Positions 72 to 21,039 of a stretch of 21,039 bases of DNA are shown here, one piece after another. A program made the position numbers and the translations under genes. Positions within the stretch are counted from its first letter, which is position 1. Every line of letters begins with the position of its first letter. The DNA comes from Candidatus Aenigmatarchaeota archaeon (lineage in GTDB: Archaea > Aenigmatarchaeota > Aenigmatarchaeia > Aenigmatarchaeales > JACQIB01): NCBI GenBank assembly GCA_046760225.1, contig JBHIDR010000012.1:1-21039 (forward strand). The letters are read 5' to 3'. The notes under the pieces are model-generated. The model searched no databases. It worked only from the letters and a program-made list of their open reading frames with translations, and was not told the origin of the DNA.

Positions 72-1952
72 ATGGTTGAAATAAAGACATCAGAGCTCTT
101 TGAGAAGATAAAGGAAGGACTGCCTGAAGATGCAAAGATATCAGACATCAGGTTTGAGGGGTGTGAGATAGTCCTGTATACAAAGAACAAGAAGTTCTTT
201 ATTTCCAATTCCGCTGTGATTAAGGGCTTGGTGAGCACATTAAAGAAAAGGATAATCCTCAGGCCAGACCCCTCGATATGCGTTGATATGGAAAAGGCAA
301 AGAAAGTGGTTGAAGAGACAGTGCCCAAGGATGCTGGTGTGAAGGAAGTGACCTTTGAACCCGAGTTCGGGGTAATGACAATAGAGGCAGACAAGCCAGG
401 GCTCGTGATAGGAAAGGGAGGGGAGACCCTGAAAGAAGTAAAGAGGAAAACATTCTGGCTGCCCCACATAAAGAGGTCACCTGCAATACCGAGCGACATA
501 ATCAAGACACTCAGGGAGCTGATATACAAGGAGAGCGCGTTCAGGAAGGATTTCCTTGACAAGGTCGGGAGGAGCATACACTCAGGATGGAAGCCAACAG
601 AATGGGTAAGACTTACAGCTCTGGGAGGTTTCAGGGAAGTCGGAAGGTCAGCTATACTCTTACAGACACCTGAGAGCAATGTGCTCATTGACTGCGGAAT
701 AAAACCAAGTACAAATGAGCTGCCCTACCTCAATATCCCGGAATTCGACATAAAGAAGCTGAATGCAGTGATACTTTCCCATGCACATATGGACCATGCT
801 GGTGCAATACCAATGCTCTATGAATACGGGTGCGAGGCACCATTGTATTGCACTGTTCCTACAAGGGACCTGATGGTTCTGCTCTGCATGGACTACATAA
901 ACCTCATGAACAAGGAAGGCAAGCAGCCGTTATATTCAACAAAAGGGATAAAGGAGGCAGTGAAAAGGTGCATACCGCTTGATTATGATGAGGTATCTGA
1001 CATAACACCTGACATGAGGCTCACTCTCCTGAACAGCGGCCACATACTAGGGGGCAGCATGGTGCACATACATATAGGCGATGGTTTGCACAATGTTCTT
1101 TACACAAGTGACATTAAGTTCGACAGGACAGCACTGTTTGAATCAGCAAGCATGAACTTCTCAAGAGCAGAAACAGTGATAACAGAGAGCACATATGGTA
1201 GCAAGGGAGACATACAGCCAAGGAGAATGGAGTCTGAGTCAGCATTAGTTGAGGCAGTGAAGAAAACAATAAAAAGAAAGGGAAAGGTGCTCATACCAAG
1301 CTTTGCTGTTGAAAGGAGCCAGGATTTACAGGTGATTCTTCAGAGAGGAGGCGTGGGCGTGCCCATATACCTGGACGGCATGATATGGGACGCGACTGCA
1401 ATACACACAACCTATCCAGAGTACATGAACAGGGACCTGCAGAGACTGATACTTCAGCAGGGAAAGAACCCGTTTACTTCTGAGATATTCAAGAGAATAG
1501 GAAGCCAGGAAGAGAGGAAGAAGATACTGAACAGCAAGGACCCGTGCGTAATAATAGCAACAAACGGAATGTTGATAGGCGGGCCAAGTGTATGGTGGCT
1601 GAGGCAGCTGGCAGAGGACAAGAAGAACATGGTTGTCTTTGTTGGATACCAGGCAGAAGGCAGCCTTGGCAGAAGGGTGCAGAAAGGATGGAAGGAGGTG
1701 CCAATGGAAGAAAAAGGCAGGACAGTTGCTGTGCCAATAAACTGCGAGGTTGTCACAGTTGAAGGACTTTCTGGGCACAGTGACAGGAAACAGCTCATAA
1801 ACTATATTTCAAGGCTCAAGCAGAGGCCGGAAAGAGTCATAGTTGACCATGGTGAGGCCTCAAAATGTACTGAGCTTGCAAGAGACCTCCACAGGATGTT
1901 CAGGGTAGAGACACTTGCGCCCAAACTTCTCGAGACAATCAGGCTGAAGTGA
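72..1952 (+). CDS. fttA: aCPSF1 / FttA: KH-domain beta-CASP metallo-beta-lactamase ribonuclease (transcription termination factor)
   Basis: N-terminal KH region with GLVIGKGG, then LGGFREVGRS, LIDCG, HAHMDH, SGHILG, SGHSD and DHGE motifs; about 626 aa. ATG at 72 preferred over TTG at 39 because TTATAATA (44-51) lies 20 nt upstream. Confidence 0.95.
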   Translation: MVEIKTSELFEKIKEGLPEDAKISDIRFEGCEIVLYTKNKKFFISNSAVIKGLVSTLKKRIILRPDPSICVDMEKAKKVVEETVPKDAGVKEVTFEPEFGVMTIEADKPGLVIGKGGETLKEVKRKTFWLPHIKRSPAIPSDIIKTLRELIYKESAFRKDFLDKVGRSIHSGWKPTEWVRLTALGGFREVGRSAILLQTPESNVLIDCGIKPSTNELPYLNIPEFDIKKLNAVILSHAHMDHAGAIPMLYEYGCEAPLYCTVPTRDLMVLLCMDYINLMNKEGKQPLYSTKGIKEAVKRCIPLDYDEVSDITPDMRLTLLNSGHILGGSMVHIHIGDGLHNVLYTSDIKFDRTALFESASMNFSRAETVITESTYGSKGDIQPRRMESESALVEAVKKTIKRKGKVLIPSFAVERSQDLQVILQRGGVGVPIYLDGMIWDATAIHTTYPEYMNRDLQRLILQQGKNPFTSEIFKRIGSQEERKKILNSKDPCVIIATNGMLIGGPSVWWLRQLAEDKKNMVVFVGYQAEGSLGRRVQKGWKEVPMEEKGRTVAVPINCEVVTVEGLSGHSDRKQLINYISRLKQRPERVIVDHGEASKCTELARDLHRMFRVETLAPKLLETIRLK

Positions 1953-1992: not shown

Positions 1993-3519
1993 ATGGATAA
2001 GATCATAGTATTAGATTTTGGAGGCCAATACTGCCACCTAATTTCTAGGAGGATTAGGGACCTTGGTGTTTATTCTGAAGTGCTGCCATCGGGTATGACA
2101 AAGAAAGACTTAATTAAGATACCGAATCTAAAGGGCCTGATTCTATCCGGTGGGGCTGCGTCTGTCTATGGCAAGCATTCCCCGAAATGTAACAAAGAAG
2201 TGCTTTATCTGGGCATTCCCATCCTAGGCATCTGCTATGGGCATCAACTGATAATGTTTCTTGATGGTGGGGAGGTGGTTTCAGGAGAACACGGGGAATA
2301 CGGGATTACAGAACTAAAGATTCGGGAAAAGAGCATTCTGCTGAACGGTCTAGATGGTGGAGAAAGGGCCTGGATGAACCATAAGGACATAGTAAAGAAC
2401 TTACCAGCCAATTATTCTGTCATTGCATCAACAACGAATTCCCCAATAGCGGCCTTTGAAAACAGCAAAAACAAGATTTACGGCGTACAGTTCCATCCAG
2501 AAGTTAGTCACACTGAGAATGGAGATAGAATCCTTGAAAACTTTGTTTTCGGGATTTGCAACGCCAAAAAGGAATGGAACACCTCTGATATTGTGAATGA
2601 CATAACCGATGAAATTAAACAGAAAATCGGGAATAAAAAGGCCGTAATTGGTTTGTCTGGTGGTGTGGATTCCTCAACAGCTGCTATTCTTGTAAACAGG
2701 ACAATTGGTAAAAATTTGACCGCTGTTTATGTTGATACGGGTCTGATGAGGCACGGAGAAACAGAATTTATTGAAAAGGCATTTTCAAAATACAATCTGA
2801 ACCTGAAGATTGTCAATGCCCAGGACAGATTTTTCAAGGGACTGGAAGGCATCACTGAACCTGAAGAGAAAAGAAGAATAATCGGGAAATTGTTTGTTGA
2901 CATATTTGATGAGGTTGCGCAGAAAGAAAAGGCAGATATCTTGGTACAGGGGACAATCTATTCTGACAGAATTGAGAGCGGAATCACAGAACATTCTTCA
3001 AAGATCAAATCTCACCACAATGTGGGTGGGTTGCCTGACAACATGAAACTGGAGGTCTATGAGCCACTAAGGAACCTGTACAAAGATGAGGTCAGGAAAC
3101 TTGCAAAGGAACTTGATTTGCCTGATGAAATTGTCAAAAGACACGTCTTTCCTGGGCCTGGGCTGGCTGTGAGGATTGTTGGGGATGTCACGCCGAAAAA
3201 GGCAGAGATTGTGAGAAAAACGAGCCTCATAATTGATGAGGAGCTCGAGAAGTCAGAATTGTACAACAAAGTCTGGATGGCTTTTGCTGTTTTGCTGCCT
3301 GTAAAAAGCGTTGGGATACAGGGCGATGCAAGGAGTTACAAGTATCCGGTTGTTGTAAGAATTATAGAATCAAAAGATGCAATGAGCGCGAACTTCGCCA
3401 AGATACCATATGGAATATTAGAAAAGATTTCCACAAGAATTACCAATGAAATCAATGATGTCAACAGAGTGGTTTATGACATCTCCAACAAGCCCCCATC
3501 CACAATGGAGTGGGAATAG
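1993..3519 (+). CDS. guaA: GMP synthase (glutamine-hydrolysing), fused GATase + ATP pyrophosphatase chain
   Basis: LDFGGQY start, GICYG (catalytic Cys), QFHPE (His/Glu), PP-loop SGGVDS, IKSHHNVGGLP, FPGPGLAVR, C-terminal KPPSTMEWE. Confidence 0.97.
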   Translation: MDKIIVLDFGGQYCHLISRRIRDLGVYSEVLPSGMTKKDLIKIPNLKGLILSGGAASVYGKHSPKCNKEVLYLGIPILGICYGHQLIMFLDGGEVVSGEHGEYGITELKIREKSILLNGLDGGERAWMNHKDIVKNLPANYSVIASTTNSPIAAFENSKNKIYGVQFHPEVSHTENGDRILENFVFGICNAKKEWNTSDIVNDITDEIKQKIGNKKAVIGLSGGVDSSTAAILVNRTIGKNLTAVYVDTGLMRHGETEFIEKAFSKYNLNLKIVNAQDRFFKGLEGITEPEEKRRIIGKLFVDIFDEVAQKEKADILVQGTIYSDRIESGITEHSSKIKSHHNVGGLPDNMKLEVYEPLRNLYKDEVRKLAKELDLPDEIVKRHVFPGPGLAVRIVGDVTPKKAEIVRKTSLIIDEELEKSELYNKVWMAFAVLLPVKSVGIQGDARSYKYPVVVRIIESKDAMSANFAKIPYGILEKISTRITNEINDVNRVVYDISNKPPSTMEWE

Positions 3520-3525
3520 TCCAAG

Positions 3526-3897
3526 TTATTCCTTCCATGGCCTGCAGATGATAATGGCATAGAGCAGGTCAGATATCACATGGAAAAGTGCTCCCAGGAA
3601 TATGGGGAAGTAGAGGATATAGAACACAGCGAGTGCCAATATGTTATGAAAGGGCAAAAGGAACCAGAGCTTGAGGCTCTTAATCTTGCTCTTCTTTGAA
3701 AGTTCCCTGCAATGGTTCCATATTCTCTTTAGGCTCAGTGTCCGCAGCTTTATGCTGAAGAATAGGACATGGTCTGCATCCACTAGGATAGAAGCTGCGA
3801 TGGCAATAAGTAATTCAAGCGGCGTGAGGAAGCCAAAGAACAGATGCAATGGTATGAAGAAGAGCAGTGCGAACAGCAGGTGCCAGTGCGGTAGCAT
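3526..3897 (-). CDS. Small integral membrane protein, YdjM-like putative metal-dependent hydrolase
   Basis: Hydrophobic segments carrying H (PHWH), DADH, PFHN and FHVISD motifs in the spacing typical of this family. ATG at 3897; an in-frame GTG at 3906 is an alternative start. Confidence 0.65.
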   Translation of the reverse strand: MLPHWHLLFALLFFIPLHLFFGFLTPLELLIAIAASILVDADHVLFFSIKLRTLSLKRIWNHCRELSKKSKIKSLKLWFLLPFHNILALAVFYILYFPIFLGALFHVISDLLYAIIICRPWKE

Positions 3898-3907
3898 GTA
3901 AATCACA

Positions 3908-4008
3908 TGGTGGGCGGGGAGAGATTTGAACTCTCGACCACTCGATTATCAGTCGAGCATTCTAACCTGGCTAAACTTTGCGGGTCCGTTCGCACGAACT
4001 ACCCGCCC
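3908..4008 (-). tRNA. tRNA-Ile(GAT) with a 23-nt intron at position 8/9; CCA encoded
   Basis: Minus strand: GGGCGGG-T[intron]A-GTTT-AGCCAGGTTA-GAAT-G-CTCGA-CT GAT AA-TCGAG-TGGTC-GAGAG-TTCAAAT-CTCTC-CCCGCCC-A-CCA. Removing 23 nt gives a canonical 78-nt cloverleaf. Confidence 0.95.
3978..4000 (-). other. tRNA-Ile intron (8/9), 23 nt
   Basis: AGTTCGTGCGAACGGACCCGCAA. Central helix GCGG(3-6)/CCGC, bulges GT|A and AA|A, intron hairpin GTTCGT-GCGA-ACGGAC closed by a GNRA tetraloop. Confidence 0.8.
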
Positions 4009-4045
4009 TTATCCTCGCCCATTAAATCAGTATATCAGCATTACT

Positions 4046-4053
4046 TATATAAA
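4046..4053 (-). promoter_or_regulatory. TATA box for tRNA-Ile
   Basis: TTTATATA on the minus strand, 37 nt upstream of G1. Implies a start site near 4020-4022 and a leader of about 12-14 nt. Confidence 0.6.
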
Positions 4054-4100: not shown

Positions 4101-4138
4101 TTTGAACGCGCGATATCTGCCTTGCGAAGGCAGCGTCA

Positions 4139-12367: not shown

Positions 12368-12473
12368 TTCATAAATGATGTACTATTCGGCTTTTTTCTA
12401 AAGAAAACACTACACTAGACATGCCTATTTATATTGTTTCGCTATGTAATTAATGTTAAGCAAGGTATTTTTT

Positions 12474-15400
12474 ATGGCAACAGGGAAGAAGGGACATAGC
12501 TTTGAGAATCTGCCGGAGTTTGAAAAAGAGATAGTAAGGATAATACAAAAAAAGGGCCAGACTGCTTCTATTGACATTGCAAGAATAATGTATCCTGACT
12601 TGCTTAACATCAGACCAAAGGTGTCACAGGTCAGTGTAAGCCTTAAAAGACTGGAGAAAAAGGGTGTTCTGAAGCGAACTAAGAAGGAAGGCAGGAAGGC
12701 CTATTATAATTTGAGGGTGCCGATAAAGCAAAGGAGAATACAGAGAAAAATAAGAACCAGGAAGCCTGTGAGGCCAAAAATACCCATGGAAGAGAAGCCG
12801 AAACAACCTATGCAGCCTGCTGCAAAGCCGAGGATAAGCACATTCTCGAAATACCATACAAAAAGAATAGGCATTGTGTTTGCTGCACTAGTGATTTTGG
12901 GGCTTATAATCAGTTTTGGTGGAATAACAGGACTTTTTCTGCAGGAGAACATACAGCTCAGCATTGTCAGCAACCAGCTAGAAGGTGGGCAGGAGCTGGC
13001 CTATAGCATACGTAATATACAGCCCCAAAAGATGACAGATATTACAGCGCAGATAATACTGCCTGCTGAGAGCAGTATAATGGATTCTGGGGGTGCGGTT
13101 GTCCAAGAAGAGGCTGACAGGACAATATTGACATGGTCTATTGATTCTATGGAGTCAGATGAAACAAAATCCTTTGTTTTTACAGGAGTTGTTGACGGAA
13201 GAGTTGAGATGGCTGCAAGCGGTACAATAAAAGGGACTGAAGTAGCAGCTGCAGACCCTTACCAGGCAAGTGTGGGAGCTGACAGCTATTATTATCATTC
13301 ATTGGATGCAGGAGAAGGCTATGTTGAGGACATCACTATCTTTGCTACTGCAAGTATGATCGGAGTGGAACTGCCTGAAGAAAATATTACAGAGGAAATT
13401 CCGCAAGCTGGGGAGAACATAACAGAAGAGGAAATAATAGAGAACATAACAGAAAACATCACTGAGCAAGAGCTGAACATAACTGAGAACATTACAGAGA
13501 ACATCACTGAAAATGTGACTCAGAACATAACAGAAAATATTACGCAGCCAGAACAAAACATCACAGAAAACATAACGCAGAACGAGACAATTGGGGAGCC
13601 AGAAGCAAATGAGACACAAGAACCAGAACAAAATGAAACAATTGGAACAGAAGAGACTTCACAGGAACCAGAGCAGAATGAGACAGAGGAACCAGAAACA
13701 AATGAAACACCTGAAGAGCAATCAGAAGTCTCGAACATAACAGGAGCGTTCCTTGGCGGCGATAGCTATGTAACATTGAATGTATATATTGACAGTGATA
13801 ATGAGGTGAATGGCAATGAAGGCTTCATAGGAGAAATTATTTTTAGTGGAATCTGGAGCGGAGATGTTAGTGCGTCCTTCCCACCAGAGACATATCCTGC
13901 TTCATCAAATATTGTAACATATTCAACAGATGATGTCAATATCGAGTTCAGTGAAATCATAATCACGAAGAGATTCGAGAAAGAGATAAGCAGCAGCAAG
14001 CTGGTGGATGTTTATGGTGTAAATGTCACAGAAGTTCCTTATACAAAACTTGAGGAAGATGTTACTTATGATGCAATAATAGATTCTGCAGAACTTGATG
14101 AAAGCGGAACACTGACAGTGGTGTTCCATCATGACTCACCTGTTCCACAGCCGATTTACATTGAAGCTGATTTTGATTATACTTTAAGCAAAGACCAGTC
14201 AAGTTCAGGTGAGAGCGTCATTCTTACTGTCCTGAACTGGACAGAAGATGATTACTTTGAGGTATACATAGGTGGTGCAACAGAAGTTGTTGCATTCGGT
14301 GCACCAGAATACTATGACTTTGATGCAAGTGTGCTGGGTGCTGAAGGGGAAAAGCAGAACGTGACAGTCGAGTTCAAGAACGCAAGGACAAAGAAGCTCA
14401 GGAAGAAGACCAAAGGACTAGACAATGTAGTGAAGGTCAAAGAAGGTAAGTATGATATTGAGATGAATCCTGTAGAGGGTCCTGTTAAGAAAATAGTTTT
14501 TGAAAACATAAAGCTTAAAGAAAACATCTCCGAGTTCGTGAAACTTGATACAAATGTTTCTGTTGAGGGTTATGACAAAACATATGCAATTGATCCAACT
14601 GCATTTAATTTCACAAATGCAACTGTCACAGTGACAGCAACAGGAACAACACTGTACAAGTGTAAGGATTGGAACCTTGAAACACAATCATGTTATGGAA
14701 GTTGGGTACTTTTCAAATCTGACCTGGTTCCAGGAGAGAACTATACATTCACATTGACTCCAGAAGATCCCGCGTTTTCAGAAACATTACAGCCAAACGC
14801 GACAATAGGAATTGATACATTTGTCAATCAAAAAGCCCCAACCACAAATTATGGTAGCCAGACAATGCTGGTTGCTGGCGAATCTGGCGGCAAATACGCA
14901 GGCATACTTATAAAATTCACGGGTAACATCCCTGCAAATGCAAACATAACATCAGCTGCATTGAAGCTTTACTTCTATGATTCTCCGACAAACCCAACTA
15001 ATCAAATAAACCTGTCAACAAGACTAATCACTTCAAACTGGAATGAGTCTGATGTAACTTGGAACACAAGGCCTACTTACTCTAGTCAGTATTCCGACAA
15101 AATCACTTTAACAAACAGCTATGGCTGGGTTGAATGGGATGTGACTGAAATGGTTCAGGGATGGGTCAATGGCAGTTATACAAACCATGGTATCGCTGTT
15201 ATTCCAGATACAGGAACAGCCAGCACTGACAAGAGGTTCTACAGCAGTGATTATTCAAATGCATCGCTGCATCCCCTTTTAGAGACCAATTACACAACAG
15301 GACAGATTAACATAAGCATAGCATGGCCCATAAACAATACCCAGCACGGCAATGGCATTGTAATGAGCGAGTTCAATGTTTCAAGCGAGTACAATATAAC

Positions 15401-18400
15401 GGCGTGCTCCCTTGTTGTAAATGGCGTTGTGCTGGATACAGACACGAACATAACGCAGAACACAGTAAAGTATTTTGAGCGGAGCGCAACAGTAGAAGGC
15501 ACATTCAACTGGTACATAAACTGTACAGACAGCATGGGGTATATGGCTTCAAGCAGCCTGATGACGAACACAGTCAATGCGTCCAAAGCAGATGTGCACG
15601 GGAAAGTGGTTGATAGCAGCAACAATCCGGTAAACGTTACCATCAGGTTCAAGCAAAACGGAATTACGAAATATATTAGCCAGGGTCTGATTCACAGGCT
15701 TGTGGTCGATGATGGTGTATATGATATTGAAGTGACGCCGGTCGGTCATATCATTAGCGGGGTGACATTCAAAAATGTCAATATTACAACAGGATTCAAA
15801 AAGGTTGTTGATATAGATACAGTGCAAGATGCGAACAAGACTGCCGGTTACGCAAGAGTGTATGCAGTAGACCCGACAGCACTGAATTTCAATAATGCCA
15901 CAATCACAGTAACAGCATCCCAGAATGCTACTGTGCTCTTCAAATGTTCAAGCTGGAACTTCACCACAGAGGAGTGTCCGGTTATTTCGGAGAACTGCAC
16001 TTCTGATCCGAATGAGAACAGTTCACAGATATGCAATTATACCGGCGGTTGGGAATATTTCATGGATGTGCTGCCCGGACAGGAGTACAATATTACACTA
16101 ACGCCAAATGACCCGGGATTTGCAGAGGGCAGCCCGAGCAACGGGACAGCAGACAATGGCGGGTATACCTTCATAACATCCCAGAACTCATACCAAACAT
16201 CAAGCGGAAGCTACCTCAATACATGGTCTGATGACAGTTCGTATTATTGTACGGGATATCATGATTCCGCGAGCAGCGGAACTAACAGATGGTACACTTA
16301 TTTTGATTTCAACCTTACCAACCTGAGTCTGACTTCCCTGGACAACCTTACATTCGAGTGGAGGGGATATGCAACAGGAAGGGACGGTTTATGCGCACCG
16401 ATTAATGATCCTGCAGAATGTTCTGATGGGCACGGGACATGCCAGCCGTCCTACATAAGGGTCTATGACTGGTCAACAGGACAGTGGGACATACTCAATT
16501 CAACTTCGTACACAGTTACAAGCGCATGGGACACCACGCAGCAGACCATCATAAGGTCCAATAACACACCAAAACAAAGCTGGTACAACAGTACCACAGG
16601 TACGGTAAGGGTGGCATTTGAACAACATGAAACAGGCATGTACTATCGCTATGAGACATACCTGATACATGACTATATACAGTTGAGTGTCGGTTATTCT
16701 TCAGGAGGGGGTTATGTTGTAGTCAACCTGCCTCCGGGCAAAAGGGCTGTCCTCGCTGAAAACACGTCAGTAGATGTGACAGCAGTGCCGCAAACAGGCA
16801 TCAAGGATATTTACCTTGCCCATGGAGCCTTTGGAAGCAACGGCAATATAATAGCAAGATTGACAATAGATTTCTCTTCAGATGTTGACTTGAGCGATAT
16901 TACAGTGGAAACCGACAGGAATAACAAGAAGGCAGTGATACACAAGCCCAGCTACCCGTCTGACGTGGTCCAGAAGAACCTGCTCATACCAAGCACAGGT
17001 GCAGGAGAGGCCTACATATGCCCGGGTGTAACGTCATTAAATGCAGTAAACACGCTCTGCTCGAACAGAGTAACAATTGGAGCAGGCCAAACAAAGAACG
17101 GCATGACGGTTTCCATGACAACACTTGATAACGAGGATTATTATCTCGTTTCCAATATCACGGGAACAGGTGGAGGGGAAGGCAGTGCACCAGTGGCCTC
17201 CAATGTAATTCTGAATTCGACCTCAGGCAGTAACCTCACAACTGATAACTTAACAGTAACTTATGATGTTTCTGATGCAGACAATGATACAGTAAAGAAC
17301 ATAACAAACTGGTACAAGGACGGTTCTTCAATAGCAGTCCTGAACATGCCGTTTGAAGGGGGAAGTAATTCAACCTACATAAAGGATTATTCTGGATACA
17401 GCAACAATGCAGCCTATGTAAATGCAACATGGAACTCATCTACTGGCTTTGATGGGAAGGGAGCATACAACTTTTCATCAACGTACATAGAAGTTTCAGA
17501 TGACAGTTCACTGGACCTCCCGGATGAGATGACGATTCTTGCGTGGATAAAGCCGGATACAGTAAGCAGTATTCATTTCATTGCAGAGAAAGGATACAAT
17601 GACAATGATAATTTCGGTTTCCTGACATACGGCGATGAGCTGTATTTCGAATACAACAGCACTTCAGGTTACCAGTACAAACAAACTTCAAATGTAAATC
17701 TCACAGCAGGCGAGTGGTACCACGTGGGTATTGTTGCAAATTCAACCTTCCTCAAATTCTTTGTGAACGGGCAGAATGTTGAAAATTTTAACCTGACTGC
17801 AGGATTTGTTACGAACGACCACCCCCTCCTTATAGGGCTGCAGAACTACACGGGAGCGCCCTATTACTTTGATGGCATTATTGACGAGGTTATGATATTC
17901 AACATGACGCTGTCGGATGAGCAAGTGGAAACAATCTACAGGAATGAAACAGACCTTATTGTTTCGCAAGAAACATCAGATGGCGATGTCTGGAAGGCGT
18001 GCGTAACGCCAAATGACGGGGCGCTTGATGGTACAGAAGTATGCAGCAATAACCTTAGTGTTGCTTATGATGCCACGCCACCAGCCATAAACATAATATC
18101 GCCAGCCAACAACTCCGAGGACATAGATGGGACAGTGCTTTTCGAATACAATGTCACGGACAGCGAGACATCTGTAAGCTCGTGCGGACTGATAATAAAT
18201 GATGTCACAGACCAGACAGACAACAATGTTACAGAAGGCGTGACGCTGAACTTCAGCAAAACAGGAATGATAGGCGGGAACTATTCCTGGAAGATTAACT
18301 GTACAAGCGAAGGTGGTGAAAGCCATTCGGATTTGAGAACAATCACAATCAAGCAGGCAATATTTGAAGACAATTTCACTCTGGCAGGAGGCTTCCAGAA

Positions 18401-21039
18401 TGATTCGGACAACAAGGCACCATGGGAATGGGGAAATGCCACTCAAATGAACGGCTGTCACAGCCCACCAAGCTGCTGGGGGACCAACCTGACTGGAAAT
18501 TATTATTCAAAGACATCTTCACCTCCGGATCCCTATGATGATTTCCTGACGCAGGTAAATTCAATGGACCTTTCCGATTATACCAACATTACACTGACAT
18601 TTTACCACTACAGGTATTTTGAAGATGCATCAACACTCTGGGATGCCGGAGTGGTTGATATAAATTACAACGGCTCATGGACTAGGCTGACGCCCGAAGA
18701 AGGGTACAGCGGCACAGTAGCCGGCAATGCTGATAGTTCGCTGGCGAACCAGTCAGCCTATGGTTACCATGGCAGCGGCTGGGAACTGGCAACCTTTAAC
18801 CTAACACCTTATGCTGGAAATTCAAATGTCACAATAAGGTTTTACTTTGCAGCTGACATGTATGCGCATGACAGGGGATGGTTCATAGACGATATAAGAG
18901 TCACTGGCGACGCTTCAATTGATACAGCAGCGCCATCATACTCCCAGCTTAAGGAATCACCAGCAGATTCAGCAGTATACAGTTCAGGAGCAAGCTACCA
19001 GTTCAACGCGACATGGACCGATGATACGGCTGTGGACACTGTAATCCTGGAGTTTGACGGTGTTAATTATACAGATGTCTCGAGCAGCGGAAACGAATAT
19101 TACAGGACGTTCACTGACCTGTCGGCTGGCGATTACAATTACCAGTGGTATGCAAAGGACACTTCCAATAACTGGAACAAAACAAGTACGATGATTTATA
19201 CAGTTGAGCAGGCAAATTCATCACTTTCAGTTGCGCTGGACCCGTCCTCGAGCGAAGCATTCGGAACAGAAACAACAGCCAACTGCAGCATCACTAGCGG
19301 GGATGCGGGTGCGACAATAACATTTTACAGGAATGGAACATCTGTAAATAATCCGGATGTTCAAACACTTGGGGCAGGTGTCTATAATTATACATGTATT
19401 TACACCCAATCGCAAAACTATACTGCAAACTCCAGTATTGACAATTATCTGACAATTAACAAGGCATCAACAACAACTAACTTGTATATAGACGGCTCTG
19501 AAGCAAACAAGAGCGTCACTTACGGTGCGCAAACAAATGTCACTGCAACAACATCTGCAGGCTCGGTGACGCTGTACAGGAACGGGCAAGCAGTAAATAA
19601 TCCGGACATAACAGCACTTGCAGCAGGAACTTACAATTACACGGCATACAACGCTGGCAATGATAACTATACAGGCAGTTCAGAAACATGGTGGGTGACT
19701 GTGGTGAAGGCAAACACAACATTAACACTGGTTGCTTCACCGAGCTGGACAGAAACATACGGAACAGAAACAAATATAAGCTGTAATGCCGACAATCCTG
19801 AAGTTTCACCAACATTATACAGAAATGGGGAAGCAGTGAGCAACCAGGATATTCTCATACTGGGTGCAGGGACGTATAACTATACCTGCAACAACACTGC
19901 AACGCAGAATTATACAGCAGATTCGGAGAGCAACACACTGACAGTAAACAAACAAACAACTTCCACCAGCCTATTCATCAACGGTTTTATGTCAAACGAT
20001 ACAATAACATACGGAGCACAGTCGAATGTTACTGCCACAACCTCAAACCTTTCAGTAACACTTTACAGGAACGGAACAGCTGTGAACAACCCGGATATGC
20101 TTGTGCTTGGGGCCGGTATCTATAATTACACTGCTGTAAACGAGGGCAATAATAATTATACTGGAAGCTCGTCTACATGGTGGGTGACTGTAAACAAGGC
20201 AGACAACCCTGTAAATCTATATATTAATGATAAATTAAACCAGAATGATACAATAATATACGGTACACAAAACAATGCTACTGGAACAACCCTGATTGGA
20301 ACAGCATACCTCTACAGGGACAGTGCTCCAGTAACAAACCCGGAAATAACAACACTGGCTGCGGGAACATACGCCTACAAGGTAAACAGTACAGGCAATG
20401 CCAATTATTCTGACAATTCAACTGGGCTGACCTACTATTTGACAACCAATAAGGCCATGTCAGCAATTGAGGTTTCCCTGAGCCCTTCGGACAATGAAAC
20501 CTATGGGACATCGTCCACAGCAAGCTGTGGAATAGTGACAGGTGAATCCAATGCAACACTAACGCTCTATAGGAACAATAATACAGTAGCTAGTGGGTCT
20601 GGCAACCAGTCTGAAACAACAATACTGGCAGCTGGTACATACAATTATACATGTTTGTATACAGAATCTGAGAACTTTTCAGCCAGCAGCAATACAGACA
20701 ACTATCTTACCATCAACAGGGCAACATCAACTGCTTCACTGGTCCTGTCCCCACCATCACCAGTAACATACGGAACTTCCACAACAGCAACATGCACTGA
20801 CACCAATCCGGAAACATCAGCAGGCCTTTACAGGAACAGCACAGATGTGACAGCAGAGAACAACACAGGTGTTGTTCTGGGAGCTGGTGGATACAGCTAT
20901 GTGTGCAATGTCACAGAAACAGAGAACTATACATCAGCAAGCAATAGTTCAGCCTATAATGTTGAGCAGGCATCCAACCCGGTGAACCTCTACCTGAACG
21001 GAACGCTTAATGCAAACAAAACAATAACATATCCTGCTG
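12474..21039 (+). CDS. Giant membrane-anchored surface glycoprotein/adhesin with an N-terminal winged helix-turn-helix (partial, at least 2855 aa, 3' end outside window)
   Basis: One frame from ATG 12474 (MATGKKGH...) to the window end (...NKTITYPA); no stop seen in manual translation and no + strand ORF in the track, as expected for a frame running off the end. Approximate domains by motif recognition: wHTH 12510-12713; K/R/P linker; TM 12867-12941; DUF11-like ~12990-13190; ENIT stalk 13380-13742; unnamed Cys domain x2 (14319-14783, 15594-16127); DNRLRE/CBM96-like 14784-15293; LamG ~17331-17940; InhA/MAM-like sandwich ~18360-18908; tandem Ig-like repeats from 19209. Confidence 0.92.
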   Translation, partial: MATGKKGHSFENLPEFEKEIVRIIQKKGQTASIDIARIMYPDLLNIRPKVSQVSVSLKRLEKKGVLKRTKKEGRKAYYNLRVPIKQRRIQRKIRTRKPVRPKIPMEEKPKQPMQPAAKPRISTFSKYHTKRIGIVFAALVILGLIISFGGITGLFLQENIQLSIVSNQLEGGQELAYSIRNIQPQKMTDITAQIILPAESSIMDSGGAVVQEEADRTILTWSIDSMESDETKSFVFTGVVDGRVEMAASGTIKGTEVAAADPYQASVGADSYYYHSLDAGEGYVEDITIFATASMIGVELPEENITEEIPQAGENITEEEIIENITENITEQELNITENITENITENVTQNITENITQPEQNITENITQNETIGEPEANETQEPEQNETIGTEETSQEPEQNETEEPETNETPEEQSEVSNITGAFLGGDSYVTLNVYIDSDNEVNGNEGFIGEIIFSGIWSGDVSASFPPETYPASSNIVTYSTDDVNIEFSEIIITKRFEKEISSSKLVDVYGVNVTEVPYTKLEEDVTYDAIIDSAELDESGTLTVVFHHDSPVPQPIYIEADFDYTLSKDQSSSGESVILTVLNWTEDDYFEVYIGGATEVVAFGAPEYYDFDASVLGAEGEKQNVTVEFKNARTKKLRKKTKGLDNVVKVKEGKYDIEMNPVEGPVKKIVFENIKLKENISEFVKLDTNVSVEGYDKTYAIDPTAFNFTNATVTVTATGTTLYKCKDWNLETQSCYGSWVLFKSDLVPGENYTFTLTPEDPAFSETLQPNATIGIDTFVNQKAPTTNYGSQTMLVAGESGGKYAGILIKFTGNIPANANITSAALKLYFYDSPTNPTNQINLSTRLITSNWNESDVTWNTRPTYSSQYSDKITLTNSYGWVEWDVTEMVQGWVNGSYTNHGIAVIPDTGTASTDKRFYSSDYSNASLHPLLETNYTTGQINISIAWPINNTQHGNGIVMSEFNVSSEYNITACSLVVNGVVLDTDTNITQNTVKYFERSATVEGTFNWYINCTDSMGYMASSSLMTNTVNASKADVHGKVVDSSNNPVNVTIRFKQNGITKYISQGLIHRLVVDDGVYDIEVTPVGHIISGVTFKNVNITTGFKKVVDIDTVQDANKTAGYARVYAVDPTALNFNNATITVTASQNATVLFKCSSWNFTTEECPVISENCTSDPNENSSQICNYTGGWEYFMDVLPGQEYNITLTPNDPGFAEGSPSNGTADNGGYTFITSQNSYQTSSGSYLNTWSDDSSYYCTGYHDSASSGTNRWYTYFDFNLTNLSLTSLDNLTFEWRGYATGRDGLCAPINDPAECSDGHGTCQPSYIRVYDWSTGQWDILNSTSYTVTSAWDTTQQTIIRSNNTPKQSWYNSTTGTVRVAFEQHETGMYYRYETYLIHDYIQLSVGYSSGGGYVVVNLPPGKRAVLAENTSVDVTAVPQTGIKDIYLAHGAFGSNGNIIARLTIDFSSDVDLSDITVETDRNNKKAVIHKPSYPSDVVQKNLLIPSTGAGEAYICPGVTSLNAVNTLCSNRVTIGAGQTKNGMTVSMTTLDNEDYYLVSNITGTGGGEGSAPVASNVILNSTSGSNLTTDNLTVTYDVSDADNDTVKNITNWYKDGSSIAVLNMPFEGGSNSTYIKDYSGYSNNAAYVNATWNSSTGFDGKGAYNFSSTYIEVSDDSSLDLPDEMTILAWIKPDTVSSIHFIAEKGYNDNDNFGFLTYGDELYFEYNSTSGYQYKQTSNVNLTAGEWYHVGIVANSTFLKFFVNGQNVENFNLTAGFVTNDHPLLIGLQNYTGAPYYFDGIIDEVMIFNMTLSDEQVETIYRNETDLIVSQETSDGDVWKACVTPNDGALDGTEVCSNNLSVAYDATPPAINIISPANNSEDIDGTVLFEYNVTDSETSVSSCGLIINDVTDQTDNNVTEGVTLNFSKTGMIGGNYSWKINCTSEGGESHSDLRTITIKQAIFEDNFTLAGGFQNDSDNKAPWEWGNATQMNGCHSPPSCWGTNLTGNYYSKTSSPPDPYDDFLTQVNSMDLSDYTNITLTFYHYRYFEDASTLWDAGVVDINYNGSWTRLTPEEGYSGTVAGNADSSLANQSAYGYHGSGWELATFNLTPYAGNSNVTIRFYFAADMYAHDRGWFIDDIRVTGDASIDTAAPSYSQLKESPADSAVYSSGASYQFNATWTDDTAVDTVILEFDGVNYTDVSSSGNEYYRTFTDLSAGDYNYQWYAKDTSNNWNKTSTMIYTVEQANSSLSVALDPSSSEAFGTETTANCSITSGDAGATITFYRNGTSVNNPDVQTLGAGVYNYTCIYTQSQNYTANSSIDNYLTINKASTTTNLYIDGSEANKSVTYGAQTNVTATTSAGSVTLYRNGQAVNNPDITALAAGTYNYTAYNAGNDNYTGSSETWWVTVVKANTTLTLVASPSWTETYGTETNISCNADNPEVSPTLYRNGEAVSNQDILILGAGTYNYTCNNTATQNYTADSESNTLTVNKQTTSTSLFINGFMSNDTITYGAQSNVTATTSNLSVTLYRNGTAVNNPDMLVLGAGIYNYTAVNEGNNNYTGSSSTWWVTVNKADNPVNLYINDKLNQNDTIIYGTQNNATGTTLIGTAYLYRDSAPVTNPEITTLAAGTYAYKVNSTGNANYSDNSTGLTYYLTTNKAMSAIEVSLSPSDNETYGTSSTASCGIVTGESNATLTLYRNNNTVASGSGNQSETTILAAGTYNYTCLYTESENFSASSNTDNYLTINRATSTASLVLSPPSPVTYGTSTTATCTDTNPETSAGLYRNSTDVTAENNTGVVLGAGGYSYVCNVTETENYTSASNSSAYNVEQASNPVNLYLNGTLNANKTITYPA
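13380..13742 (+). repeat. Coding low-complexity repeat (ENIT/QNET)n, acidic N-glycosylation stalk
   Basis: Degenerate 12-nt units such as GAGAACATAACA and GAAAACATCACT; 18 N-x-T sequons in about 121 codons. Confidence 0.9.
19209..21039 (+). repeat. Tandem Ig-like repeats of 81-89 aa (7 complete + 1 partial)
   Basis: Consensus KA...L.......TYG....T......LYRNG..V.NP....L(G/A)AG.YNYT......NY..S......TVN. Unit starts at about 19209, 19461, 19707, 19950, 20196, 20451, 20718 and 20967. Confidence 0.9.

Follow-up and report, generated by a model that had tools for sequence, protein, structure and literature searches.

The stretch of DNA analyzed here (21,039 nucleotides; hereafter the window, to which all positions refer) carries on its minus strand an intron-bearing tRNA-Ile(GAU) gene, which Rfam and ARAGORN together show to be real. 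Its neighbors are archaeal housekeeping genes, i.e., those for aCPSF1/FttA, GMP synthase, ValRS, aRF1, Rpo7 and NYN/PIN/TatD nucleases, and the G+C content of the window is 40-47%. The best named relatives of aRF1 belong to Candidatus Aenigmatarchaeota, with a top identity of 72% among the matches listed; hence, the host belongs to the DPANN archaea and has no closely related sequenced counterpart among these matches. No splicing endonuclease gene is present within the window, and Rfam searches with E up to 5 revealed neither a second tRNA or tRNA fragment nor another credible RNA family in it. Partial synteny with the window around tRNA-Ile is seen in distant DPANN/Bathyarchaeota contigs at 37-51% protein identity and involves the genes for ValRS and aRF1 (L021, L039), GMP synthase (L040) and a metallophosphoesterase (L018). 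An open-ended ORF of >2862 aa on the plus strand (12453-21038), with matches to Laminin_G_3, CBM96 and disaggregatase repeats, probably encodes a giant surface protein. Giant surface proteins are common in DPANN archaea.

The tRNA gene and its upstream region consist of the following parts, listed in the direction of transcription:

4053-4046, minus strand: TATA-like promoter box TTTATATA, whose start lies 45 nt 5' of tRNA nt 1 (sequence)
4022-4020, minus strand: predicted transcription start, A4022 to G4020 (-14 to -12), as deduced from the TATA spacing
4021-4012, minus strand: putative leader decoy TGGGCGAGGA (sequence, repeat search, folding models, shuffles)
4011-4009, minus strand: linker TAA between decoy and tRNA nt 1 (sequence)
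4008-4001, minus strand: exon 1, tRNA nt 1-8, GGGCGGGT (sequence, repeat search, ARAGORN)
4000-3978, minus strand: intron of 23 nt at position 8/9 (sequence geometry; ARAGORN calls the tRNA only without 4000-3978)
3977-3911, minus strand: exon 2, tRNA nt 9-73, with the D, anticodon (GAU) and T arms and the 3' acceptor strand (Rfam, ARAGORN)
3920-3911, minus strand: TCCCCGCCCA, nt 64-73, the common target of exon 1 or the leader decoy (repeat search)
3910-3908, minus strand: genomically encoded CCA end (sequence, ARAGORN)

From 4021 to 4009, the minus strand reads T GGGCGAGGA TAA, directly 5' of GGGCGGGT, and all coordinates and sequences given in a preliminary description of the locus agree with the sequence. 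The Rfam tRNA model (RF00005) gives 42.4 bits, above its gathering threshold of 29, but it aligns over model positions 9-63 only, at 3977-3919. ARAGORN does not call any tRNA on the unspliced DNA. When 4000-3978 is removed in silico, however, it reports a tRNA-Ile(gat) with a full cloverleaf of 78 bases including CCA. The acceptor stem, GGGCGGG/CCCGCCC, has 7/7 Watson-Crick pairs (repeat search, ARAGORN), and the repeat search finds this pairing as 10-nt arms, 3912-3921 with 3999-4008, that are 90% complementary.

Two further features adjoin the gene. An ORF of 126 aa without a Pfam match (3526-3906, minus strand) begins 2-12 nt past the encoded CCA, and an obvious T-run terminator is absent between the two, so that the tRNA and this ORF may be co-transcribed. 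On the other side, about 65 nt upstream of the TATA box, a perfect 7-bp hairpin, CTGCCTT-CGC-AAGGCAG (4117-4133, minus strand), without an Rfam match, sits in a divergent intergenic region of 430 nt.

Because AGTT is present at both junctions, the 23-nt insert can formally be placed at five positions, from 8/9 through 12/13. In the bulge-helix-bulge rule of Marck and Grosjean, as far as it is quoted in 10.64898/2026.10.13.758758, two 4-nt strands pair with each other, i.e., the four nucleotides of the exon that lie upstream of one 3-nt bulge and the four intron nucleotides upstream of the other. The intron is assigned to position 8/9, since this is the sole placement with complementary 4-nt strands; those from 9/10 to 12/13 were rejected on this ground. 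In the 8/9 placement, GCGG (nt 3-6, 4006-4003) pairs with CCGC of the intron (3983-3980) in a 4-bp central helix, and putative 3-nt bulges lie at the expected positions, G7-U8-A (4002-4000) and AAA (3979-3977). The repeat search reports the same pairing as fully complementary 6-nt arms (100%; 4001-4006 with 3980-3985). As the central helix uses G3-G6, it excludes the acceptor stem, and the incompatibility that the preliminary description had proposed is thus borne out by the geometry. On the intron side, a helix of five pairs including one G-U, GUUCG/CGGAC (3999-3995/3988-3984), adjoins the 5' bulge. An exon-side flanking helix beside the 3' bulge is absent, with G2 facing G10, and the motif is therefore classed as HBh' and not as hBHBh'. 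It had been suggested that the TAA of the leader plus G1 supply this outer helix by pairing with TTTA (nt 11-14), but the probability of this pairing is only 0.01-0.03; in folding of the growing chain, another register, U-3..G-6 with G10..U13, is favored. Removal of the intron by a splicing endonuclease and subsequent ligation are predicted.

Two other arrangements of the gene were considered and rejected. If the copy of exon 1 in the leader were the true exon 1, followed by a 35-nt intron, the central helix would lack complementary strands, a G would occupy position 8, and A would be mismatched with C in pair 6:67. A split or permuted tRNA does not fit either, as both exons lie in collinear order within 98 nt, and the leader is not part of the motif.

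The box TTTATATA matches the simple TATA consensus in 8/8 positions and starts at -45. For comparison, 150 other distinct archaeal tRNA upstream regions were taken from the matches listed, after exclusion of 13 loci titled bacterial; 74 of them, with a TATA-like octamer matching at least 7/8, were kept, and 76 were dropped. Among these listed genes, the octamer starts most often at -30 to -36 (38 of 74), which implies very short leaders. Relative to this mode of 74 genes, the box at the locus under study lies ~12-14 nt further upstream, and a leader of 12-14 nt that starts at the decoy is therefore predicted. This spacing agrees with the start at 4020-4022 originally proposed from a TATA box at 4046-4053.

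The predicted leader is complementary to the 3' strand of the acceptor stem. In the repeat search, 4012-4021 and 3911-3920 form 10-nt arms with 90% complementarity, which corroborates the pairing at 9/10 positions with tRNA nt 64-73 that was noted before. If A4014 is bulged out as one inserted A, the leader matches nt 1-7 of exon 1 exactly, and the U preceding the copy can pair with A73. To obtain a background, 160 other distinct tRNA genes from 120 loci among the matches listed were each scored for the highest number of Watson-Crick pairs that any 10-nt stretch of the 25 nt upstream can form with nt 64-73. In these genes, the best match is at most 7/10, against 9/10 here, with scores of 2, 3, 4, 5, 6 and 7 found in 2, 20, 64, 55, 15 and 4 genes, respectively. 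The duplex energy, -15.7 kcal/mol, is likewise the strongest in comparison with these 160 listed genes, the next being -12.0. When the 25-nt upstream stretch was shuffled, 9/10 was reached in 3 of 20000 cases; when only the 13-nt leader was shuffled, so that its G-richness was kept, it was reached in 13 of 20000, and the native duplex energy was reached by 12 of 3000 such shuffles. Chance is thus insufficient to explain the complementarity, given this background and the shuffles, and the complementarity between leader and 3' strand is confirmed as a real and statistically unusual feature.

These figures bear on the possibility that an ordinary G-rich initiation leader happens to match the C-rich 3' acceptor strand. 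Leaders of that kind do exist, as G-rich leaders of 12-13 nt have been reported for tRNAs of Methanopyrus kandleri (PMC3695527, in the part available). However, such a coincidence of composition is quite improbable in view of the rarity of an in-register 9/10 match, or of the native energy, in shuffles of identical composition, and of the absence of any match above 7/10 among the 160 listed genes. In addition, the promoters of most sampled archaeal tRNA genes are placed for very short leaders.

The main rival to a function of the leader is that it is a relic, either the remnant of a tandem duplication that copied a short piece of the tRNA 5' end, or the former 5' end of the gene itself, and that the copy is tolerated since RNase P removes the leader. 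With one bulged A, the leader equals nt 1-7 of exon 1, and the two copies are adjacent, at a distance of 12 nt. Counted from the first G of the leader copy, the start of the TATA box is at -33, the most frequent distance to the tRNA 5' end in the 74 genes, and the idea of a former 5' end therefore accounts for the promoter position equally well. After the integration of elements, moreover, tRNA genes are known to be flanked by direct repeats of tRNA 5' ends (PMC3293823, in the part available). On the other hand, no inserted element is present between the copies. Furthermore, the seven acceptor-like bases, which pair with the 3' strand, are intact, whereas divergence is seen in the remainder of the putative 12-nt repeat unit (ATAA vs. 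TAGTT), and this offers a weak argument for function over relic. Taken as a whole, the relic explanation is considered rather unlikely.

Among the loci listed, leaders of intron-less tRNA-Ile genes from Aenigmatarchaeota (L015, L018 and L046) are AT-rich, unrelated and without the mimic; these genes are distant from the locus under study and have different acceptor stems. None of the 120 loci among the matches listed carries the 8/9 intron, and none is a close relative. The pattern by which they were retrieved, i.e., the anticodon arm plus the T loop, is a general one, and the matches span many phyla. Inspection of the matches listed also did not reveal a further tRNA whose intron lies at nt 12 or before; they contain 238 T-arm matches, 68 of them without a nearby 5' strand, and 175 candidates with T arm plus acceptor, 35 of them with extra spacing.

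Several other observations were made in these loci. In L046 (~1360-1560, plus strand; Aenigmatarchaeota), a T arm with 3' acceptor strand lies 174 nt downstream of a matching tRNA-like 5' end (GGGCTCG...), which points to a tRNA gene interrupted by very long or multiple insertions. In seven tRNA-Ile(GAU) genes of Micrarchaeota, Woesearchaeota and other archaea (L010, L031, L038, L049, L066, L100 and L110), the D-loop region contains insertions. In L100, the central helix uses nt 10-13 of the D stem and therefore does not conflict with the acceptor stem, and a leader mimic is absent. A second copy of the last ~23 nt of tRNA-Ile is located ~1 kb from the gene in a Nitrososphaera contig (L008, ~2143-2166, plus strand), as at the border of an integrated element, which it may represent. 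Finally, single or tandem units resembling the 3' part of a tRNA (anticodon plus T arm) occur on bacterial contigs of Pirellulales (L004, 5886-6460), Bryobacteraceae (L029, ~6000) and Ktedonobacteraceae (L079, 2680-3520), where a common GGCGAATGCC...GGACTACAT-like stretch upstream replaces the normal 5' half.

The effect of the leader on the unspliced precursor was assessed by folding. The 113-nt transcript from G4020 to CCA has a minimum free energy of -44.5 kcal/mol (z -3.34), with none of 200 shuffles being as good, and in the corresponding structure the leader is paired with the 3' strand and G3-U8 with the intron. Since plain folding misses the body of the cloverleaf, the anticodon and T stems were forced in the nearest-neighbor models described below. 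Without leader, the probability of the acceptor stem is 0.998 and that of the central helix 0.000. With leaders of 10, 11 and 12 nt, the acceptor stem declines from 0.991 via 0.418 to 0.001, and the central helix rises from 0.007 via 0.58 to 0.997. With 12-14 nt, the central helix reaches 0.997-0.998 and the helix between leader and 3' strand 0.998-0.999. The dependence on leader length is unchanged at 55 and 70°C. Expressed as the free energy of the central helix minus that of the acceptor stem, the difference goes from +5.2 kcal/mol without leader to -4.3/-4.9 kcal/mol with 12-13 nt, i.e., in the model the leader shifts the balance between the folds by ~10 kcal/mol. For the strict bulge-helix-bulge conformer, with both bulges open, the energy compared with the acceptor fold is +8.0 kcal/mol without leader and -1.5/-2.1 kcal/mol with it. 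Thus, the length series and the energies show a switch of fold that is large and depends sharply on the inclusion of G4020-G4019 in the transcript, and folding with and without leader, the comparison put forward in the preliminary description, indicates that in nearest-neighbor models the leader decides the fold (central helix from 0.000 to 0.997).

In the ensemble, G7 and U8 mostly pair with intron nucleotides, and the 3' site is part of an open junction. The intron-side helix GUUCG/CGGAC has a probability of 0.66 in the acceptor-stem fold but of only ~0.07 in the switched fold, where GUUC/GAAC competes with it, and no exon helix closes the 3' splice site in the switched fold. Among shuffled leaders, 180 of 500 also give a central-helix probability of at least 0.5, as do 7 of 154 natural leaders when grafted onto the precursor. 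G-richness alone accounts for much of the effect on folding, and in this respect the shuffles fit a coincidence of composition.

Folding of the growing chain qualifies these results. The hairpin between exon 1 and the intron forms once it is transcribed, with or without the leader, and consequently the leader may be not strictly required. The proposal that the leader sequesters the 3' strand and frees exon 1 for the splice motif holds in the models of the full precursor, but the hairpin does not depend on it, and a fast endonuclease might act independently of the decoy. This also favors the relic explanation, under which splicing would proceed via co-transcriptional folding and a broad-specificity endonuclease.

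In the spliced RNA with leader, the 2D model still favors the decoy helix by 0.9-1.4 kcal/mol, and the true acceptor stem has a probability of 0.08-0.20 at 37°C and 0.43-0.70 at 55°C. A return to the acceptor stem is therefore assumed to take place via tertiary folding or via capture of the minor conformer by RNase P. When the interrupting A is deleted or changed to G, the modeled probability of the true acceptor stem after splicing drops to 0.000-0.001, against 0.20 for the native leader. In the model, the interrupting A is thus what prevents trapping of the spliced RNA, a weak argument for function over relic, as several single substitutions in the leader outscore the native sequence on both counts in the model. 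The same calculations speak against a relic: since the models predict that most spliced RNA is misfolded because of the decoy, a useless one would be costly and should decay, unless it is recent or, after all, useful.

The helix between the leader and the 3' strand could also serve end processing or stability rather than splicing, e.g., by masking the RNA from RNase P or exonucleases, or by providing an acceptor-like helix for 3' trimming of transcripts that read through into the downstream ORF. The helix leaves A73-CCA single-stranded and begins at the predicted 5' end, and the ORF starts a few nt past CCA, as would be expected in that case. However, no other sampled tRNA gene among the matches listed has such a leader, and its single distinctive companion is an intron that needs a free acceptor 5' strand. 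A role in end processing or stability is regarded as quite improbable.

The observations are best accommodated by a strand exchange that would couple the leader to splicing. The pre-tRNA would start with ~12-14 nt of leader, nearly identical to the acceptor 5' strand. In the full precursor, as modeled, pairing of the leader with the acceptor 3' strand leaves exon 1 to the intron and makes the splice-competent fold the most stable one. This fold would resemble a tRNA with almost no 5' extension, so that RNase P would have little to cut. The splicing endonuclease would then cut, and ligase would connect U8 and A9. Intron removal would leave the true 7-bp acceptor stem about equal in energy to the decoy helix (8 bp with a bulged A), and tertiary folding together with irreversible cleavage of the single-stranded leader by RNase P would pull the RNA to its mature form. 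Strand exchange thus implies that splicing would precede 5' maturation; against this order stands M. kandleri, where the ends are trimmed before intron removal according to the part of PMC3695527 available. The models and the promoter spacing, with a start site that is predicted and energies that are nearest-neighbor values, support the physical coherence of the exchange. Overall, a function of the leader as a strand-exchange switch for splicing is plausible but unproven at this single locus, and it is put forward tentatively, with confidence a little short of even. That leader copies of the acceptor 5' strand would be a general, unrecognized device of archaea, especially mesophilic DPANN, for splice motifs that overlap the acceptor stem is a more speculative and, on present evidence, unlikely extension. 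Such a device would include a decoy-stabilized, RNase P-resistant precursor, in which intron removal would be the trigger for formation of the true acceptor stem.

Introns near the 5' end of archaeal tRNAs pose a puzzle, since the splice motif requires nucleotides that the acceptor stem needs as well. If the strand-exchange reading is true, a cis-encoded decoy would be a simple, RNA-only answer to this conflict and an example of a processing order that is written into the folding landscape of a precursor. It would also provide a signature for annotation, as complementarity between leader and 3' end combined with an upstream-shifted promoter could betray hidden tRNA genes with 5'-proximal introns. 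If the leader is a relic, the locus would still record the duplication of a tRNA 5' end and its tolerance.

In RNA switches such as attenuators, riboswitch anti-terminators and toehold strand displacement, one strand is contested by two helices, and the choice between them falls to a third element. Unlike in those systems, the trigger at this locus would not be a ligand, a ribosome or an added strand but irreversible processing, i.e., intron removal and cleavage by RNase P.

A leader that sequesters the acceptor 3' strand is not described in the full-text literature searched, which comprises the available parts of PMC4090602, PMC4033280, PMC3218864, PMC2237900, PMC3695527, PMC5829648, PMC12397907, PMC3728597, PMC3241643 and PMC3293823; earlier remarks in Marck and Grosjean (2003) or Sugahara (2007/2008) are possible. 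Similarly, the word "leader" is absent from the available text of a census in Asgard archaea (10.64898/2026.10.13.758758), a preprint in which acceptor-stem introns are treated in the supplements. The intron itself has known counterparts. Relaxed bulge-helix-bulge introns of the hBH and HBh' classes were defined by Marck and Grosjean (2003), as quoted in the available parts of 10.64898/2026.10.13.758758 and PMC4090602. Like other non-canonical archaeal tRNA introns, the present one is short (23 nt) and located outside 37/38, and like hBH/HBh' introns it has a 4-bp central helix, to which exon and intron contribute four nucleotides each, and an intron-side helix, together with two putative 3-nt bulges. 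In contrast to the known members of these classes, however, the exon strand is the acceptor 5' strand, and motif and acceptor stem are mutually exclusive. Disrupted tRNA genes and broad-specificity endonucleases have been reported for DPANN archaea (PMC5829648, in the part available), and the host of the locus under study belongs to the same group.

The closest parallels to the leader are found in M. kandleri and Nanoarchaeum equitans. The G-rich leaders of M. kandleri are removed by RNase P, and no role of the present kind is proposed for them in the available part of PMC3695527; the switch model requires for this one tRNA the opposite of the processing order described in that organism. In the split tRNAs of N. 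equitans, a complementary leader and trailer pair for cleavage by the endonuclease and are then discarded (PMC4090602 and PMC4033280, in the parts available). There, as at the locus described here, sequence outside the mature tRNA pairs to build the structure that is cleaved. But whereas the complementary flanks in N. equitans join two transcripts and themselves form the bulge-helix-bulge, the leader of this tRNA-Ile would act in cis and only sequester a competing strand, and its removal would presumably be left to RNase P.
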